Assembly (NCBI GenBank): GCA_035283785.1
Contig: DATETG010000005.1
Location: 2,902-66,901 of the forward strand
DNA: 64,000 nucleotides
Reading direction: 5' to 3'
DNA from: Candidatus Nanoarchaeia archaeon
Lineage (GTDB): Archaea > Nanobdellota > Nanobdellia > Pacearchaeales > GW2011-AR1
In this document: in pieces, positions 50,721-55,473 of the stretch
How the letters are laid out: every line of letters begins with the position of its first letter
Position numbering within the stretch: the stretch's first letter is position 1
The notes under the pieces: generated by a model
Told to the model about the DNA's origin: nothing
The model's input: the letters and a program-made list of their open reading frames with translations, nothing else
The model's database searches: none
Made by a program: the position numbers and the translations under genes

Positions 50721-51491
50721 TTAACAAATCCCCCTCTCATTCAACTTCTTCTGAACATGGTTAAACAACGTTGAGGAAATCAAAGCTTGGTGGAAGCCAA
50801 TATGAATTTGTCCGTCAAACTTTATTTTTCCTAGATAAGTTTGGTTTTTTAGAATTTTTTTCAATCCATTAACTGAGAGATTGTGTTTTTTTGATAACTG
50901 GGTGAGAGAGATATTATTATTCAAAAATTCCTGGAAAAGTTCTCCTACAATATAAGAGTCTTCTTTTGGAACTAATTTTTTGTCAACTATTTTATAGCCG
51001 AAGGGCGCCCTTGAGATGGGGTTTCCTTCTCTAGCTTTTTTATCAAGAGAGAATTTAGTTCTTTCTCCGGTGACATTTCTTTCAAATTCTGCAAAAGCTG
51101 AAATAATATGGAACATAAGTTTACCTGATGCACTTGTAGTTTCTATTTTATCTTGAAGGGAAACAAAATCTACTCCCCACTCCTTAAGCTTTGCAATTGT
51201 ATCTATCAAATCTTTTAATGAACGTGAAAACCTATCAAGTTTGTAAATAAAAATTGCCTGGATTTTTCTGTTTTTTGCATCTTCCAAAAGATTTCTCATC
51301 TCAGGTCTTCCTTTAATGTCTTTTGCCGATTTTCCCTCATCCCTATAAACTTTGAAAATATCATAACCTAAAGCAGATGCATAATTTTTTAGTGCTTCCT
51401 CCTGTGCTGAAAGAGAAATTCCTTGTCTTGCCTGTTCTTCTGTTGAAACGCGAATATAAATTGCTGCCTGTGATTTTGAATTTTCTGCCAT
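50721..51491 (-). CDS. serine recombinase (resolvase/invertase family)
   Basis: N-terminus AAIYIRVSTEEQ...GISLSAQ...LDRFSRS matches the catalytic-Ser resolvase domain (YxRVSTxxQ, D..SR). A C-terminal ~100-aa extension follows. Confidence 0.85.
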   Translation of the reverse strand: MAENSKSQAAIYIRVSTEEQARQGISLSAQEEALKNYASALGYDIFKVYRDEGKSAKDIKGRPEMRNLLEDAKNRKIQAIFIYKLDRFSRSLKDLIDTIAKLKEWGVDFVSLQDKIETTSASGKLMFHIISAFAEFERNVTGERTKFSLDKKAREGNPISRAPFGYKIVDKKLVPKEDSYIVGELFQEFLNNNISLTQLSKKHNLSVNGLKKILKNQTYLGKIKFDGQIHIGFHQALISSTLFNHVQKKLNERGIC

Positions 51492-51723
51492 TTTCCTCTT
51501 TTTAGTGTGAACTTAGACCATTAAAGTTAAGGTGCACGTTACCTAAGAGGACACTAAGTATATAAATTTTACGTTGAAAAACAGGGTTTTTAGGGCCTAA
51601 AGGGCAAAATGGGATTCATACAGTATAAATTGCGTGGAGTTCTTATGTGTGAGTTTATTTTTGGAGACTTTTGTATACTTAGACTATCTAAGTGAACAAC
51701 TCAAAGGATAAATTTGAAAAAAT

Positions 51724-52020
51724 TTAATGAAGAGAATTGACCTCTTTCTGAAGAAGCTCTGCATAAAAACCCAAACTGGTGTAGAGATTTCCCGTTGTGG
51801 GATAATCTTGATATTGTTTAAATCTTTCTTTTATATGTGCACCTTTAAATGAGAGTGTTCCTGCTTTCAAATCGATTTCAACTAGGGATGCAAGCAGGCT
51901 CTTTACATTTTTTTCCGCCAGTTTGTTCTGTAATTCAACTATTCTATTTGTGGCTTCATCAAAGGCTCTTCTAACATCTGTTTCTGCAAGTTTTCCACAA
52001 TATTCTGCAAACTGTCCCAT
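51724..52020 (-). CDS. hypothetical protein (98 aa)
   Basis: ORF preceded by the shared TGTGAACTTAGG motif. No motif recognised. Confidence 0.3.
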   Translation of the reverse strand: MGQFAEYCGKLAETDVRRAFDEATNRIVELQNKLAEKNVKSLLASLVEIDLKAGTLSFKGAHIKERFKQYQDYPTTGNLYTSLGFYAELLQKEVNSLH

Positions 52021-52131
52021 TCTTTATCTTAAAAAGTAGGATTTAAAAAATTTGTGATATGTGAACTTAGGTAACCTAAGTTAAAGAGAGATGGAACTAA
52101 CCGAAAATATAGTAATCCTGAGTACATCTAC

Positions 52132-52566
52132 TCAAGAGATTGTTTTTTCGTGAATTTCTCTGAGGATCTCGTCTTTTTTTGGAGAAAACTTGCTGACAAG
52201 AACAATACCTATAACTGCGACAAATGTTGTGATCAGGGTCGAGTAAAGAATTCCAAAAGATTCTGACGCAGGAAATCTGAAAAAGTCAACTATATGGGTC
52301 GTGTAGTTCACGATGGTGTCTCTCCAAACAAGTGCCAGCAAAAAACCAAAGGCCGCAACCACTGCGGTAATAACCTGTTTTTTTACTTCCTGTTCAAAGA
52401 CCTTTATGGATTTTAGTGAAAGATCCAAGGCAAATTTTGTTTTTTCTTTCTGCTTTGCAAGTTCCTGCTGTAACTTATTTATTTGCTGACCTTGAATCTC
52501 ATCGACACTGGAGTGTTTTTCAAGTTCTTGCTTTATCTCTGTTATTTGTTTTTTTGAAATTTCCAT
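52132..52566 (-). CDS. hypothetical coiled-coil protein with two C-terminal TM helices
   Basis: N-terminal Q/E/K-rich heptad region, then AVVAAFGFLLALVW and LITTFVAVIGIVLV TM segments. Confidence 0.3.
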   Translation of the reverse strand: MEISKKQITEIKQELEKHSSVDEIQGQQINKLQQELAKQKEKTKFALDLSLKSIKVFEQEVKKQVITAVVAAFGFLLALVWRDTIVNYTTHIVDFFRFPASESFGILYSTLITTFVAVIGIVLVSKFSPKKDEILREIHEKTIS

Positions 52567-52665
52567 GAGAAAAATTAAAATAAAATTGCTTCTTAAATTA
52601 TTATAATTATTCTTAAGGAGTGATCTGTCCTTTTTGTGAACTTAGGACAGCTTAGTTCATGTACG

Positions 52666-52717
52666 GGTGTTTAAAAGGTAAACAGGTGTTTGTGGGTGTT
52701 TAAACAGGTGTTTAAAA
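52666..52717. repeat. iteron-like array: 4 direct copies of GGTGTTT(AAA) at 10-19 nt spacing in a divergent promoter region
   Basis: GGTGTTTAAAA at 52666, CAGGTGTTTGTG at 52685, GGTGTTTAAAC at 52695, CAGGTGTTTAAAA at 52707. Further copies in both orientations lie at 53090-53131 inside the downstream ORF. Confidence 0.6.
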
Positions 52718-53566: not shown

Positions 53567-53629
53567 TACAAGTTATAATCTTCTTCAGATGCACACAAAA
53601 CAAAAGTTATTCGGTGAACAAGAAAACTA

Positions 53630-54313
53630 TTACAAATCTCTTAGTTTGAGGATAGTAGAAAGAGGAGTTATTTTCTTTAGTGAGGGTGGAATTGAAAGAA
53701 GTACTTGCTTATTATTCACCTTTGACTTATCAATAGAAATCCCTTTTTTAATCAATTTACCGACGTAATCACGAATTGAGCTTTCTGTAAGATTTAATCT
53801 CTGAGAAACAGACTTGTAATCTACCTCAAAACCCGTTTCTTCCATCTGGTATATTGTTGAAAAAACTAAAAATTCTTTTTCTGTAAGTCTTTTAAATTTG
53901 AGCCGGATCTCTTTTTTCATGTAATCTAAAGAATCAAGTATCTCGGCCGCCTTCTCAATCGAGTTTTTTCTTAAATCGTTAGGGACACTTGTCTGTCTGT
54001 CTGTCTGTCTGTCTGTCTGTCTGTCTGTTGGAACCCCATCATTTCCTGTGGAAATAGACAAATTTTGCCCGTTTAGGGGCCTAAAAGAGGAGTTATCTGT
54101 TGGAAAATTTGTTGGATCTGTCTGAAAATCCGACCGGTTTGTTGAATCTTGCTTAATTAAAAGAGGTAGAGATTTCAGCATATTTTTAGTGATTACGGAT
54201 AATTCCTGATCCCTCTCCACTAAATTTTTCTTCAAAGACAAAATCTCTGAATTAAGAAAATCCATGTCTTCCTTTATCTTCTTAAACGCATCCCTTATTT
54301 TTTCTTCATCCAT
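53630..54313 (-). CDS. coiled-coil plus C-terminal winged-HTH protein, paralogous in architecture to 52858..53454, with a (TDRQ)3 linker encoded by a (TCTG)9 microsatellite
   Basis: N-terminal heptad region (EILSLKKNLVERDQELSVI). A Thr/Asp/Asn-rich linker with TDRQTDRQTDRQT. The C-terminus LTEKEFLVFSTIYQMEETGFEVDYKSVSQRLNLTESSIRDYVGKLIKKG is wHTH, MarR/TrmB-like. Confidence 0.45.
   Translation of the reverse strand: MDEEKIRDAFKKIKEDMDFLNSEILSLKKNLVERDQELSVITKNMLKSLPLLIKQDSTNRSDFQTDPTNFPTDNSSFRPLNGQNLSISTGNDGVPTDRQTDRQTDRQTSVPNDLRKNSIEKAAEILDSLDYMKKEIRLKFKRLTEKEFLVFSTIYQMEETGFEVDYKSVSQRLNLTESSIRDYVGKLIKKGISIDKSKVNNKQVLLSIPPSLKKITPLSTILKLRDL
53991..54026. repeat. perfect tetranucleotide microsatellite (TCTG)9
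   Basis: Direct reading: nine uninterrupted TCTG units. It lies inside CDS 53630..54313. Confidence 0.9.
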
Positions 54314-54583
54314 TTAACTCGCCATACTCTTGTAGGTGTTATAAACCTTATCATTAAGCTTCCAGCGCATTCTTCGGGAGTACAGAATCCCTTTAGGGTT
54401 CCTATTTATCCCAACAACCAAATTTTTGGATTTTAATTCAGAAAGCAGGTTCTTAACAAACTCTTCATCTCTGGCTATCTCCACAGCTATATTTGAGGTG
54501 AATAAAGGTCTTGGAGAAGATGAGTAAAGAAGAGACAGAATCTGCTCAAAAATCTTCTCTTTCTTTTGCCAGGAAATTTTCAT
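54314..54583 (-). CDS. small winged-helix DNA-binding protein
   Basis: 89 aa. FEQILSLLYSS...IAVEIARDEEFVKNLLSELKSKNLVVG has an HTH plus wing-like pattern. Confidence 0.35.
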   Translation of the reverse strand: MKISWQKKEKIFEQILSLLYSSSPRPLFTSNIAVEIARDEEFVKNLLSELKSKNLVVGINRNPKGILYSRRMRWKLNDKVYNTYKSMAS

Positions 54584-54683
54584 GAAGAGAATTTTATTTC
54601 CAATTATATAAATTTTTAGTTTATTAAAAACTTAACAAGACTAAGAGGTTTAATAAAAGTCGGAAGAAGTTTCTCGGTCAAAT

Positions 54684-55094
54684 CTATTTTTTTATGTCCT
54701 TCACTGTTGGAAGGGGGATATGGAGGGGCAGACCCATTTCATCCTCTAACTGAAGAGCCTTTATGTTTGATTTCTTTAATATAACATTAAAGAGCATCAC
54801 CTTGTATTCAGATGGAAAAATCTCTTTGTCTTTCCAACTTTTCATAAAAGACTTAAATTCTTTTGAATCGACCATCAACAACAATATTCCTTTCAAATCA
54901 ACCTTTGCAATGTTTGGAGAATAACTTATCACGTACCTAAATCTTACCTCAATGAGGCTTTCTTTTGAAATAATGTCTGACTTCGCCTCTTCAACAGACT
55001 CTATATCTACATTACTCTCGATTTTCAAATCCTTGAAGTCATTTGATTCCTTCTCTACATTCACCTTGGTAAAATTAAATCCGATAATCTTCAT
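54684..55094 (-). CDS. hypothetical protein (136 aa)
   Basis: Clean ORF in the leftward operon. No motif recognised. Confidence 0.3.
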   Translation of the reverse strand: MKIIGFNFTKVNVEKESNDFKDLKIESNVDIESVEEAKSDIISKESLIEVRFRYVISYSPNIAKVDLKGILLLMVDSKEFKSFMKSWKDKEIFPSEYKVMLFNVILKKSNIKALQLEDEMGLPLHIPLPTVKDIKK

Positions 55095-55215
55095 TGGAAC
55101 CCTAAAGGAAAAATGTTTTTAAATATTTCTGTAAGAAAAACTCTGTTTTTGTGTTTGAAGAGTGTATAGAATGTGAAATTGTCTTTTTGGAAAGGTTGAG
55201 TTCTTTAAATCCGGC

Positions 55216-55473
55216 TTAGATAAGGTCTTCTTCTGAGACTATCAAGAAATCTCCTATTGCAATCACAGAATTGTAAGGAATAAGTATCTCGTTATTGCTT
55301 ACCCTCTCCAAATTAAGGTTTTTGGTGTAGGGTGTTGGATCCTTCACTACGACGTTGATTATCTCTCCGGAATTGGTTTCAAAGGTAAGATCCTTTACAA
55401 ATCCAAGTCGCTTACCTTCTTTTGTAACTATCATCTTTCCTGTTATAGAACTAAAAGGATTCCTTTCATTCAT
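55216..55473 (-). CDS. PRC-barrel-like domain protein
   Basis: 85 aa. ITGKMIVTKEGKRLGFVKDLTFETNSGEIINVVV fits the PRC-barrel pattern (G..V....G..lG.V.D...D...G.i). Confidence 0.45.
   Translation of the reverse strand: MNERNPFSSITGKMIVTKEGKRLGFVKDLTFETNSGEIINVVVKDPTPYTKNLNLERVSNNEILIPYNSVIAIGDFLIVSEEDLI

Follow-up and report, generated by a model that had tools for sequence, protein, structure and literature searches.

The 4.75-kb block at positions 50,721-55,473 of the window (the whole stretch of 64,000 nucleotides analyzed here) is best read, by a modest balance of the evidence, as two joined parts, a vertically inherited gene cluster (52,636-55,473) and the end of a hypervariable slot (50,721-52,635), combined with a mechanism based on sites embedded in coding DNA. 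All features that a first-pass annotation had listed for this block (recombinase, ORFs, a trio of wHTH proteins, repeats, hairpin and oriC) were found at or near the coordinates assigned to them, and its count of eight ORFs, recombinase included, was right. The right 2.8 kb adjoins oriC, orc1/cdc6 and the polD small-subunit gene, and is organized as follows:

52858..53454, plus strand: ccHTH_A, 198 aa; coiled coil, (VQTx)3 linker, HTH domain
53528-53540 / 53554-53566, strandless: inverted repeat, perfect 13-bp stem, 13-nt loop, in the gap where the 3' ends of ccHTH_A and ccHTH_B converge
53630..54313, minus strand: ccHTH_B, 227 aa; long N-terminal helix, disordered linker (residues 54-115), MarR-like wHTH
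54314..54583, minus strand: small wHTH protein (wHTH89), 89 aa; HrcA DNA-binding domain (PF03444, 23.5 bits against a cut-off of 21)
54684..55094, minus strand: SecB-fold protein, 136 aa
55216..55473, minus strand: PRC-barrel protein, 85 aa (PF05239, E 9.6e-10)
55595..56217, strandless: oriC, three ORBs and an AT-rich DUE, directly upstream of orc1/cdc6
55595-55617, minus strand: ORB1
55620-55820: AT-rich DUE, 13% GC
56095-56116, plus strand: ORB2
56193-56217, plus strand: ORB3
56220..57458, plus strand: orc1/cdc6, followed by the polD small subunit
57459-59069, plus strand: polD small subunit

The gene order in relatives is ccHTH_A(+), ccHTH_B(-), wHTH89(-), SecB-like(-), PRC(-), oriC, orc1(+), polD-S(+). 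Synteny was scored against 50 species-level relatives, counting loci with enough flank, and the cluster is syntenic in all ~35 species-level Pacearchaeota/Woesearchaeota relatives whose contig extends far enough. Pacearchaeota-type DPANN archaea inherit the 52,636-55,473 region vertically, as a gene cluster flanking the origin. The block had been described as a single cassette; comparison with relatives divides it into a right part, more than half of its length, that is conserved and syntenic, and a recombinase end that is variable. The proposal of a self-contained regulatory or partition-like module beside the origin fits these data, but the module was inherited vertically instead of being captured.

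Five proteins are encoded in the cluster: the paralogous coiled-coil/linker/wHTH pair, a small wHTH protein, one with a SecB fold and one with a PRC barrel. Orthologues of ccHTH_A (55-65% identity) and wHTH89 (51-69%) are present in all relatives, and the PRC-barrel gene is 64-81% identical in relatives. Weak Pfam matches and an AF2 model agree with the earlier assignment of three wHTH proteins, and hhalign confirms that the two sharing the coiled coil, repeat linker and wHTH architecture, ccHTH_A and ccHTH_B, are distant paralogues (probability 95%). In the AF2 model of ccHTH_B (pLDDT 75) the linker is predicted to be disordered, and the best Foldseek matches are MarR/ArsR regulators (E about 1e-3); the family comprises at least 1,971 proteins in 907 clusters at 50% identity, every one unnamed. 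The PRC-barrel gene opens a leftward four-gene unit (PRC barrel, SecB-fold, small wHTH, ccHTH_B) that is transcribed away from oriC and converges with ccHTH_A. In haloarchaea, proteins with a PRC barrel take part in cell division (bioRxiv 10.1101/2023.03.28.534520). The hairpin annotated as a terminator between the convergent genes is perfect; its stem, however, is 13 bp and not 11 bp, a canonical T-run is absent, and the region overall folds no better than shuffles.

In agreement with the first-pass annotation, the block abuts oriC, where ORBs flank a 13% GC stretch directly upstream of orc1/cdc6. The position and orientation of all three oriC ORB classes are conserved in relatives, and Pfam families in the identical strain locus include AAA_16, Cdc6_lid, WHD_Cdc6 and DNA_pol_E_B. 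The cumulative GC-skew minimum of the window lies near 43 kb, not at 55.7 kb; GC skew at window scale mostly tracks gene orientation.

The left 1.9 kb belongs to a hypervariable slot that extends from rpS9 to the cluster, of which it forms the inner end; the S9-ccHTH_A spacer measures 1.9-6.5 kb and its gene content differs between species. Here it contains:

50721..51491, minus strand: short serine recombinase, 256 aa (Resolvase PF00239, E 2.4e-43; PF07508, E 1.1e-6)
51507..51559, plus strand: double palindrome (GTGAACTTAG...GGTGCAC and CCTAAGAGGACACTAAGT) between the recombinase TATA box and ATG
51724..52020, minus strand: ORFan, 98 aa, without Pfam, NCBIfam or PHROG match
52061..52082, plus strand: second palindrome copy (GTGAACTTAGGTAACCTAAGTT)
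52132..52566, minus strand: DUF5654 membrane protein, 144 aa, with N-terminal coiled coil (PF18898, E 2.8e-9)
52636..52660, plus strand: third, proximal palindrome copy, the most conserved position

The gene at the left edge indeed encodes a serine recombinase, with the resolvase catalytic domain and part of the 'Recombinase' DNA-binding domain, and without zinc ribbon or coiled coil. It matches the PHROG 95 integrase (E 6e-74) over profile positions 84-359 of 651 only, and its viral relatives share at most 47% identity, limited to the catalytic domain. Full-length orthologues (62-82% identity) occupy the same slot in nine relatives. Identities of host genes correlate with each other (rho 0.58, p 2.6e-5) but not with recombinase identity (rho -0.14 and -0.23), and the recombinase phylogeny is incongruent with the host genes. 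In the source organism the recombinase is a fixed resident and not a recent integration. The ORFan is absent from all 130 related loci, and a search of 5.8 billion proteins returned its own 98%-identical variant only. The DUF5654 gene is often, though not always, the neighbor of ccHTH_A in relatives, and ten homologues lie in the proximal slot of other loci.

The 12-mer reported upstream of three leftward genes, GTGAACTTAG, has exact copies at 51507, 52061 and 52636 and no other exact match in the 64 kb; instead of a strict 12-mer, it forms the left arm of an imperfect palindrome of ~25-27 bp. One copy precedes each of the recombinase, ORFan and DUF5654 genes. Upstream of the recombinase, the layout TATA, ACTTAGGGCACCCTAAGT, GTGAAC...CCTAAGTTCAC, ATG is conserved in loci L004, L006, L011, L025, L042, L048, L147 and L179. 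In most species the proximal copy, with consensus TTGTGCACTaAGGTtA.CTT.GT, precedes ccHTH_A by 220-350 nt. A survey identified 108 sites in 51 loci, nearly throughout on the plus strand. The observation that each locus carries two to four 27-bp palindromes in the same orientation, confined to ~1.4 kb upstream of ccHTH_A, might indicate that recombinase and palindromes form a cassette platform that swaps small one-site genes in and out beside the conserved cluster, an integron-like function but with a serine recombinase. We consider this rather unlikely, even though several observations favor it. The 65 palindrome-side ORFs fall into 36 families, mostly singletons, and one family occupies different slots across genomes; L179 has, relative to L147, an additional 142-aa ORF bearing its own site, and the homology of the ORF shared by these two loci begins exactly at a site. 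The recombinase incongruence and the ORFan as window-specific gene point the same way. However, the L147/L179 junction is not clean, because the two loci also differ in the ~55 nt left of the leftmost site. Moreover, sites persist in loci lacking a recombinase within 6 kb, their distances to neighboring stop and start codons are not fixed, no cassette recurred in a second, unrelated context, and strains show no polymorphism. A shared operator in a fast-evolving region accounts for the same data.

Within the conserved cluster, the following elements lie upstream of ccHTH_A and inside the linker-coding regions of the two paralogues:

52665..52717, plus strand: intergenic array of GGTGTTTAAACAG-type repeats with palindromic core AAACAGsCTGTTT
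52813..52837, plus strand: putative ccHTH_A promoter CGACGAAAAGAAAAGATTTTTAAAG, BRE/TATA-like, ~24 nt before the ATG, assigned from archaeal promoter architecture
53100..53208, plus strand: ccHTH_A linker-coding DNA under nucleotide-level constraint (GGTGTTTAAA twice, AAACAGCTGTT three to four times)
53990..54025, minus strand: (GACA)9 tract encoding (TDRQ)3, directly 3' of ORBc
54026..54053, minus strand: ORBc (TTCCACAGGAAATGATGGGGTTCCAACA), a complete ORB-like box within the ccHTH_B coding sequence, dyad and G-string included

The array corresponds to the iteron-like GGTGTTT array noted before, and 41 of 60 related loci have its core GTTTAAACAGsCTGTTT at the corresponding position. The block TCGTCGAAAAAGAAAAGATTTTTAAA at the ccHTH_A promoter is conserved across all aligned relatives; the short distance between the BRE/TATA-like element and the ATG implies a leaderless mRNA. 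All five exact copies of GGTGTTTAAA lie inside 52666-53130, two of them within the ccHTH_A coding sequence, and a tandem repeat (GCTGTTCAAACA)3 is present at 53149-53184. The AAACAG-CTGTT palindrome is repeated in the ccHTH_A linker and also makes up the array found in the promoter region of this gene. In codons 85-117 of ccHTH_A codon diversity is 0.105, against 0.356 outside (MWU p 8.6e-7), with a third-position identity of 0.90-0.94. In ccHTH_B the values are 0.055 inside and 0.51 outside (p 1.9e-10); codons 83-105 are identical in 95-100% of ~30 species, rare codons included, such as TCC (11% background; 30/30), GGG (17%; 30/30) and GAC (35%; 27/27). No such peak of constraint was found in the wHTH89, SecB-like and PRC genes.

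ORBc lies 1.55 kb left of ORB1 in the same orientation, its 13-mer matches ORB2 exactly, and it shares TTTCCAnnGGAAAT-N2-3-GGGG with ORB1-3. Boxes with at most one mismatch to the 13-mer occur within the 64 kb only at origin-proximal places. Among the four ORB classes, ORBc shows the strongest conservation. It is present in ~33 species loci, box plus tract occur in at least 120 metagenome contigs, and an ORB with a ~36-nt (GACA)n-type tract is present in the ccHTH_B linker of at least 98 independent lineages. In 5 of 60 loci (five species) the same long box is found in non-coding DNA upstream of ccHTH_A, and 5 of 98 lineages have a second, inverted copy after the tract. Since peptide conservation is unable to explain non-coding and inverted copies, ORBc is a DNA element. 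The linker conservation is nevertheless partly at the protein level, because conservation extends to the encoded peptides, ISTGNxGVPT(DRQT)n and (VQTx)3, and an (xQTx)n repeat is common to the paralogues.

The synonymous constraint in the linkers might instead act on the mRNA, through structure, a pause for coiled-coil assembly, or an antisense/small-RNA target. Its strictly local nature, the strong self-complementarity of the ccHTH_A segment, which can form a 14-bp hairpin, and that of TTTCCAnnGGAAA are compatible with this. We nonetheless regard it as improbable, as the motifs recur in DNA that is not, or differently, transcribed (oriC ORBs, intergenic box, promoter array), inverted second copies exist, no Rfam family matches, and the strand opposite ORBc has no ORF of at least 40 aa. 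That (GACA)n is a contingency (phase-variation) repeat toggling ccHTH_B between full length and a form without the wHTH domain is very improbable. Nine pure tetranucleotide units in a coding sequence (on the plus strand, (TGTC)9.8 at 53990-54028) and metagenome allele L141, in which a 2-nt difference puts the wHTH domain out of frame, would suit it. However, the tract has the same length here and in three other strains, and both the species loci and all 80 metagenome loci keep a total of 7-10 RACM-type units after the box. In many lineages the tract is interrupted and unable to slip. The frame is open in all but one or two cases (about 56 of the 58 loci with enough sequence).

Integration of the entire block as a plasmid- or virus-like element by its serine recombinase, the origin first suggested for it, has hardly any probability left, despite the recombinase at one edge, the small unannotated genes, and the repeats and palindromes inside: five of the eight genes are syntenic beside oriC in all relatives with a divergence similar to that of orc1 and polD, which refutes it for 52.6-55.5 kb. 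A search around the block edges revealed neither att-like or other flanking direct repeats nor a tRNA, and among virus hallmark and plasmid genes only the recombinase matched. Three other strains are 99.85% identical to the source locus over 12.2 kb with zero gaps or indels, and no strain polymorphism was found there. The integrated-element reading fails for 52.6-55.5 kb because of this synteny and the lack of att-like repeats and strain indels. The reported compositional difference from the housekeeping surroundings is not borne out either (block GC 0.30-0.35, window 0.35). For the remainder, a variable, recombination-prone slot is what stands of the recombinase-bounded mobile end, and an integrated element finds no positive support.

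In the two-part reading, a divergent control region (palindrome, AAACAG-CTGTTT array, BRE/TATA) would drive ccHTH_A, and the coding DNA of the disordered 'simple-sequence' linkers of both paralogues would double as cis-acting sites: in ccHTH_A three to four tandem copies of its promoter-array palindrome, and in ccHTH_B the outlying ORBc plus a ~36-bp (GACA)n-type tract. These linker motifs are thus candidate protein-binding sites within coding DNA. One of the three local wHTH proteins may bind the AAACAG arrays of the promoter as well as those within the gene, and Orc1/Cdc6 may bind ORBc as an auxiliary, regulatory origin element. ORBc differs from a canonical ORB in lying inside a gene, 1.55 kb from the DUE; a precedent is the ORB-rich region beside oriC2 of Haloarcula hispanica, which negatively regulates oriC2 (PMC5333045). 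The recombinase, which in this reading has been exchanged among lineages, probably binds the lineage-wide 27-bp palindromes, at least for autoregulation. The outcome would be an origin-proximal nucleoprotein domain coupling cluster expression, and possibly the activity or positioning of the origin, to initiator occupancy.

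An Orc1 scan that kept one genome per species yielded 50 related loci at 63-75% identity. They come from MAGs of Pacearchaeota, Woesearchaeota and Nanoarchaeota, which places the organism among the DPANN archaea of this group, and 19 proteins of the window were compared with the 50 loci by tblastn. The features of the block (50721-55473) and of the adjacent origin are as follows.

50721-51491, minus strand: serine recombinase, 256 aa
51724-52020, minus strand: g51724, an ORFan
52858-53454, plus strand: ccHTH_A, a coiled-coil/linker/wHTH protein, with a (GCTGTTCAAACA)3 tandem repeat in its linker region
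53630-54313, minus strand: ccHTH_B, paralogous to ccHTH_A, with a (TGTC)9.8 tandem repeat in its linker region
54026-54053, minus strand: ORBc, a box like an origin recognition box (ORB), within the ccHTH_B coding sequence
54314-54583, minus strand: wHTH89, a wHTH protein of 89 aa
54684-55094, minus strand: g54684, a SecB-fold protein
55216-55473, minus strand: PRC, a PRC-barrel protein of 85 aa
55620-55820: DUE of oriC
56220-57458, plus strand: orc1/cdc6 (Cdc6 lid and WHD_Cdc6 Pfam families), adjoining oriC and followed by the gene for the PolD small subunit (polD-S)

The order ccHTH_A (+), ccHTH_B (-), wHTH89 (-), g54684 (-), PRC (-), oriC, orc1 (+), polD-S (+) was kept in every locus that was long enough, about 35 in all. 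Identities of the cluster proteins (40-81%) were comparable to those of PolD-S in the same loci (51-57%). The layout was identical in three other strains, and since these showed 99.85% identity over 12.2 kb with zero gaps, there is no presence/absence or repeat-length polymorphism among them. The exact SecB-like protein was found on 64 contigs, with an unchanged layout in those inspected. The right part of the block (52.6-55.5 kb) was present in all species, and the sole varying stretch was the interval between the ribosomal protein gene S9 and ccHTH_A, hereafter the slot, which measures 1.9-6.5 kb and differs in gene content between species.

The first-pass annotation had proposed that the block is an integrated plasmid-like or virus-like element. 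All the features that it listed were recovered. For the 52.6-55.5 kb part the proposal is refuted, because the gene order beside oriC is kept in about 35 loci, the kind of outcome which that annotation had itself named as refuting it, and for the remainder of the block no positive evidence was obtained. Searches for att repeats, a tRNA target, a composition shift, virus families and strain polymorphism were all negative: no repeats flank the block besides three palindromes internal to it, no tRNA target lies near it (the nearest tRNA is at 46.8 kb), and PHROG, Pfam and NCBIfam searches of the block returned no mobile-element hallmark gene besides the recombinase. GC content is 35% in the window, and the genes to the left of the block encode ribosomal proteins L18e, L13 and S9. 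We conclude that most of the block is a vertically inherited, origin-flanking module with probable dual-use coding DNA, beside a hypervariable slot that contains the recombinase. Elsewhere in the window, positions 37171-37262 matched the Rfam tRNA model (54 bits) and were not called by ARAGORN; this stretch of about 92 nt, which adjoins a tRNA-Leu gene and the 5S rRNA gene (37396-37510), may be an intron-containing archaeal tRNA.

Archaeal origins are defined by a DUE with ORBs on its flanks. In agreement with the earlier statement that the block abuts oriC, the ~200 bp DUE has a GC content of 13.4%, against 35% in the window, and is bounded by three ORBs in inverted arrangement, ORB1 on its left (minus strand) and ORB2 and ORB3 on its right (plus strand). 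They share the form TTTCCAnnGGAAA followed by a G-rich tail, and all three are conserved in the relatives. Judged by its sequence, oriC is well defined by a DUE, inverted ORBs and an adjacent orc1/cdc6 gene. The GC-skew minimum of the window, at ~43 kb, is uninformative for origin location at such a scale. A separate element is found upstream of the PRC gene (55505-55517, minus strand), where TTTCACAGAAAAG, which resembles half an ORB, is joined to the TATA-like GTTTATA(T/A)A; several relatives keep it as ATTTAATTTCACAGAAAAGTTTATATA. It is a possible promoter for the four genes of the leftward unit, with a mini-ORB overlapping it.

A search with the ORB dyad identified a third exact copy within the ccHTH_B coding sequence, at 54042-54054. 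ORBc consists of the dyad TTCCAnnGGAAA followed by a G-string (full sequence TTCCACAGGAAATGATGGGGT), and its 13-mer is identical to that of ORB2. It lies within a gene and 1.55 kb away from the DUE, and not in non-coding DNA at the edge of the DUE. Its sequence agrees with that of the three non-coding ORBs in the neighbouring oriC, which are less well conserved. The box TTCCAnnGGAAAynnnGGGGTTCCAACA is present in essentially every ccHTH_B gene of the relatives, always directly followed by a tract of the (GACA)n type. An exact-pattern scan of metagenomes for box plus tract gave at least 120 matches, from which 80 loci were retrieved; in all 80 the tract has 7-10 tetranucleotide units, with a mode of 8-9. 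The same long box, with the tail GGGGCTTCGACA, occurs in non-coding DNA upstream of ccHTH_A in 5/60 loci, and in 5 of 98 lineages a second, inverted ORB immediately follows the tract, where the encoded peptide is unrelated.

The reading frame was open in about 56 of 58 metagenome loci, with one or two exceptions. Together with the restriction to 7-10 units throughout, this indicates that the (GACA)n tract is constrained in length and does not serve as a phase-variation switch, a reading that was likewise rejected on the identical repeat length in four strains. The sole clear frameshift among the ~58 loci was seen in locus L141 (JABAOC010033749.1), where the tract differs by 2 nt from the allele of the kind found in locus L042, so that the wHTH domain is out of frame and a stop follows 25 codons on. 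It may reflect an assembly error or a rare null allele. A frameshift in locus L006, from a long-read assembly, lies in the N-terminal region, away from the repeat.

An auxiliary ORB has a precedent, since an ORB-rich region neighbouring oriC2 of Haloarcula hispanica is reported to act as a negative regulator of that origin (PMC5333045). As in archaeal origins with ORBs beside orc1/cdc6, oriC2 of H. hispanica among those with auxiliary ORBs, an AT-rich DUE is placed here between inverted ORBs, just upstream of orc1/cdc6-polD, and a further ORB lies outside the core origin. In contrast to these origins, the putative extra ORB described here is part of a protein-coding sequence at 1.55 kb from the DUE, runs into a tetranucleotide tract and is conserved better than the core ORBs.

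Codon alignments of about 30 orthologues showed that at codons 83-105 of ccHTH_B the identical codon is used in 95-100% of species. Rare codons are fixed in this segment: TCC (11% background) in 30/30, GGG (17%) in 30/30 and GAC (35%) in 27/27 sequences. At residues of the wHTH domain that are equally conserved, codon agreement was 30-70%. Codon diversity in ccHTH_B was 0.055 within the segment versus 0.51 outside it (Mann-Whitney p 1.9e-10), and the linker of ccHTH_A (codons 85-117) behaved similarly, with 0.105 versus 0.356 outside (p 8.6e-7). Shared ancestry fails to explain this contrast, because the control is within the same gene, and a codon-diversity scan of the other three cluster genes (wHTH89, SecB-like and PRC) gave no comparable peak. 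The linker DNA of ccHTH_A consists of tandem AAACAGCTGTT palindromes, and the same motif forms a conserved array between a 27-bp palindrome (described below) and the ccHTH_A promoter, its core being present in 41/60 loci. The GGTGTTT iteron-like array noticed in the first reading is real: GGTGTTTAAA occurs five times exactly in 52666-53130 and nowhere outside that range. The simple-sequence repeats reported in the two linkers were also recovered.

These data provide evidence that the constrained linker segments would be conserved as DNA elements and not as peptides alone. The conserved peptides encoded there (ISTGNxGVPT and the QT repeats) possibly contribute to the conservation. A constraint at the level of RNA is also possible; searches of the block found no known RNA families. 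An overlapping gene was rejected as the cause, as there is no ORF of 40 aa or more on the opposite strand at ORBc.

Two further patches were observed in ccHTH_A. At codons 57-63 (53030-53048) the coding sequence contains TTATCGTCGATAAAGAAAGA, which resembles the conserved promoter block TCGTCGAAAAAGAAAAGATTTTTAAA, and all 28 orthologues share its two serine codons TCG, a codon with 7% background usage; the stretch is a candidate for an internal promoter or for a third DNA signal within coding sequence. Near the 3' end, at codons 192-195 (KVRV, 53431-53442; AAA GTG AGA GTT), nearly every orthologue has the same codons (GTG 28/28, GTT 23/23), which makes this another short patch conserved at synonymous positions. 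A sigma-70 promoter scan, based on a bacterial model that is inapplicable to an archaeon, did no better than on shuffled sequences.

The two linker proteins are distant colinear paralogues (hhalign probability 95%, E 2.6e-8), each with an N-terminal coiled coil, a linker carrying a four-residue (xQTx)n repeat and a C-terminal wHTH. When ccHTH_A, ccHTH_B and g54684 were compared by sequence with solved structures, generic wHTH or coiled-coil noise alone was returned. In the AF2 model of ccHTH_B, a long helix (residues 3-47) is followed by a disordered region (54-115) and a MarR/ArsR-like wHTH; Foldseek on ccHTH_B gave weak MarR/ArsR matches alone. At least 1,971 proteins of a 90%-identity database, and 907 clusters at 50% identity, belong to the ccHTH_B family, none of them characterised. 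The hairpin noted earlier is perfect and does lie between the convergent genes ccHTH_A and ccHTH_B, with a stem of 13 bp and not 11 bp. Our search of the accessible literature turned up no account of this neighbourhood, and none of DPANN ORBs or of the ccHTH families either.

The SecB-like chaperones of bacterial TAC systems have disordered 'chaperone addiction' tails as their binding targets. The g54684 protein has a SecB fold and no Pfam, NCBIfam or PDB sequence match. It differs from SecB and from the TAC chaperone Rv1957 in having 10-12% sequence identity to them, in being archaeal and in lacking a Sec-targeting context; its neighbours, unlike those of Rv1957, include no toxin or antitoxin and are DNA-binding proteins whose disordered linkers are conserved. 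A SecB fold is accordingly conserved in this DPANN lineage without sequence similarity to SecB. The PRC protein contains a PRC-barrel domain, as CdpB-like proteins do (PF05239, E 9.6e-10); the implication of this family in archaeal cell division is so far confined to haloarchaea, and the neighbourhood survey in the same study does not mention orc1/cdc6 (bioRxiv 10.1101/2023.03.28.534520).

The left part of the block is headed, as had been stated, by a serine recombinase, with a Resolvase catalytic domain (PF00239, E 2.4e-43, residues 9-157) and a partial Recombinase domain; its nucleophilic-serine motif reads AAIYIRVSTEEQ. A large serine integrase of phage type was rejected: the 256-aa protein resembles the N-terminal half of such enzymes (about 450-650 aa), its match to the PHROG 95 profile covering positions 84-359 of 651, and it is devoid of their zinc ribbon and coiled coil. 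Scores against NCBIfam CcrB, CcrC and XisF were far under the cut-offs, and viral relatives are distant (at most 47% identity). As with small serine recombinases of the Tn3/gamma-delta resolvase family and their multi-site res regions, the locus combines a catalytic domain (RVST..Q) with several imperfect palindromes just upstream that overlap the promoter. Unlike these resolvases, the protein ends in the partial Recombinase domain and not in a small HTH, and the transposase, att repeats and typical cargo of transposon or phage contexts are absent.

Full-length orthologues of the recombinase occupy the same slot in nine relatives. Their pairwise identities did not follow those of the flanking host genes (rho -0.14 and -0.23), whereas the host genes followed one another (rho 0.58, p 2.6e-5); the history of the recombinase therefore includes either exchange between lineages or sorting of paralogues. 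In five loci (L001 678-1202, L006 2988-3512, L024 700-1125, L030 913-1425 and L048 2795-3322) the gene directly after rpS9 encodes a protein of 141-175 aa with an N-terminal Cys-rich, zinc-ribbon-like motif and no catalytic domain. The similarity of its C-terminal part to the recombinase is confined to the C-terminal half of the latter, and the gene is absent from the window. The genes at 48474-50724 (a DUF4389 membrane protein, a 121-aa protein, a SIMPL-domain protein, a 186-aa ORF and a 54-aa ORF) are missing at the same position in almost all relatives, and the variable slot therefore reaches well to the left of the reported block.

The motif said to be shared upstream of three leftward genes was confirmed: GTGAACTTAG occurs three times exactly in the window, each time upstream of one of these genes and nowhere else. 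It is the left arm of a lineage-wide 27-bp palindrome (consensus tTGTGcACTtAGGtta.cTt.gT), of which 108 copies were found in 51 loci, 2-4 in each; almost all of them share one strand and fall in the ~1.4 kb upstream of ccHTH_A. In many species the recombinase gene has two copies in the interval from its TATA box to its ATG, which suggests that the gene may be autoregulated.

The palindromes might alternatively delimit cassettes moved by the serine recombinase, a reading to which we give a low probability. ORFs adjacent to palindromes are highly diverse (36 families among 65 ORFs), and the window's own slot ORF, g51724, is an ORFan, so that a homologue-based cassette test gave no information. 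In one pair of relatives an extra ORF comes with a palindrome of its own, and a palindrome also marks the exact point where homology resumes, but 55 nt next to that palindrome also differ and the junction is not clean. Palindromes persist, moreover, in loci without a recombinase within 6 kb, no cassette was seen in two different contexts among the related loci, and all of this is equally accounted for by a shared operator in a region that evolves fast; distances of the palindromes to start and stop codons fit an operator and a 3'-end site equally. Integrons, including archaeal ones, similarly have small, mostly orphan ORFs interleaved with imperfect palindromes of the same orientation, a recombinase and a fixed locus. 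Their recombinase is the tyrosine IntI and their sites are attC hairpins, however, while here the enzyme is of the serine type and the sites are 27-bp palindromes; integron cassettes are mobile as units, and mobility of the slot ORFs is putative.

Returning to the conserved module, the simplest and likeliest reading is that the disordered linkers would tolerate signals at the DNA level. ORBc would be an outlying Orc1/Cdc6 site, in the orientation of ORB1 and 1.55 kb away, and one of the three local wHTH proteins would bind the AAACAG arrays. ORBc and the arrays could then build a nucleoprotein domain near the origin, through which the cluster is coupled to initiator occupancy; this domain might also modulate origin activity. 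In Bacillus subtilis, parS is located within the spo0J/parB gene near oriC. The arrangement described here likewise has a gene for a DNA-binding protein close to the origin with a candidate cis-acting site inside its coding sequence. It contains wHTH proteins and repeat arrays, the latter being candidate binding sites. The arrangement differs in having no ParA or ParB homologue and, instead, a coiled coil with a MarR-like wHTH; no Walker-type partition ATPase is encoded between S9 and oriC. Taken jointly, the cluster might be an unrecognised origin-organising system of DPANN, in which ccHTH_A and ccHTH_B bind arrays in their own linker-coding DNA, the embedded ORB recruits Orc1/Cdc6 to the same 1.5-kb stretch, and the resulting self-encoded nucleoprotein complex beside oriC controls initiation, or positions and segregates origins, without a ParA-type ATPase. 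We give this reading a low probability; its function would be analogous to that of parS-in-parB, with unrelated parts.

A recombinase, small unknown genes and repeats beside an origin do not by themselves make a mobile element, and caution is warranted in reading them so. What the locus holds is a five-gene module fixed beside the origin across a large, globally distributed lineage, with coding stretches of about 70-100 bp frozen at synonymous positions, one of which is a full copy of an initiator box; it would be a clear case of coding sequence put to dual use. The genomes of DPANN archaea are tiny, and to our knowledge almost none of their replication and segregation machinery has been characterised experimentally. 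The module bears on the question of how origin activity and chromosome organisation are controlled in these archaea.
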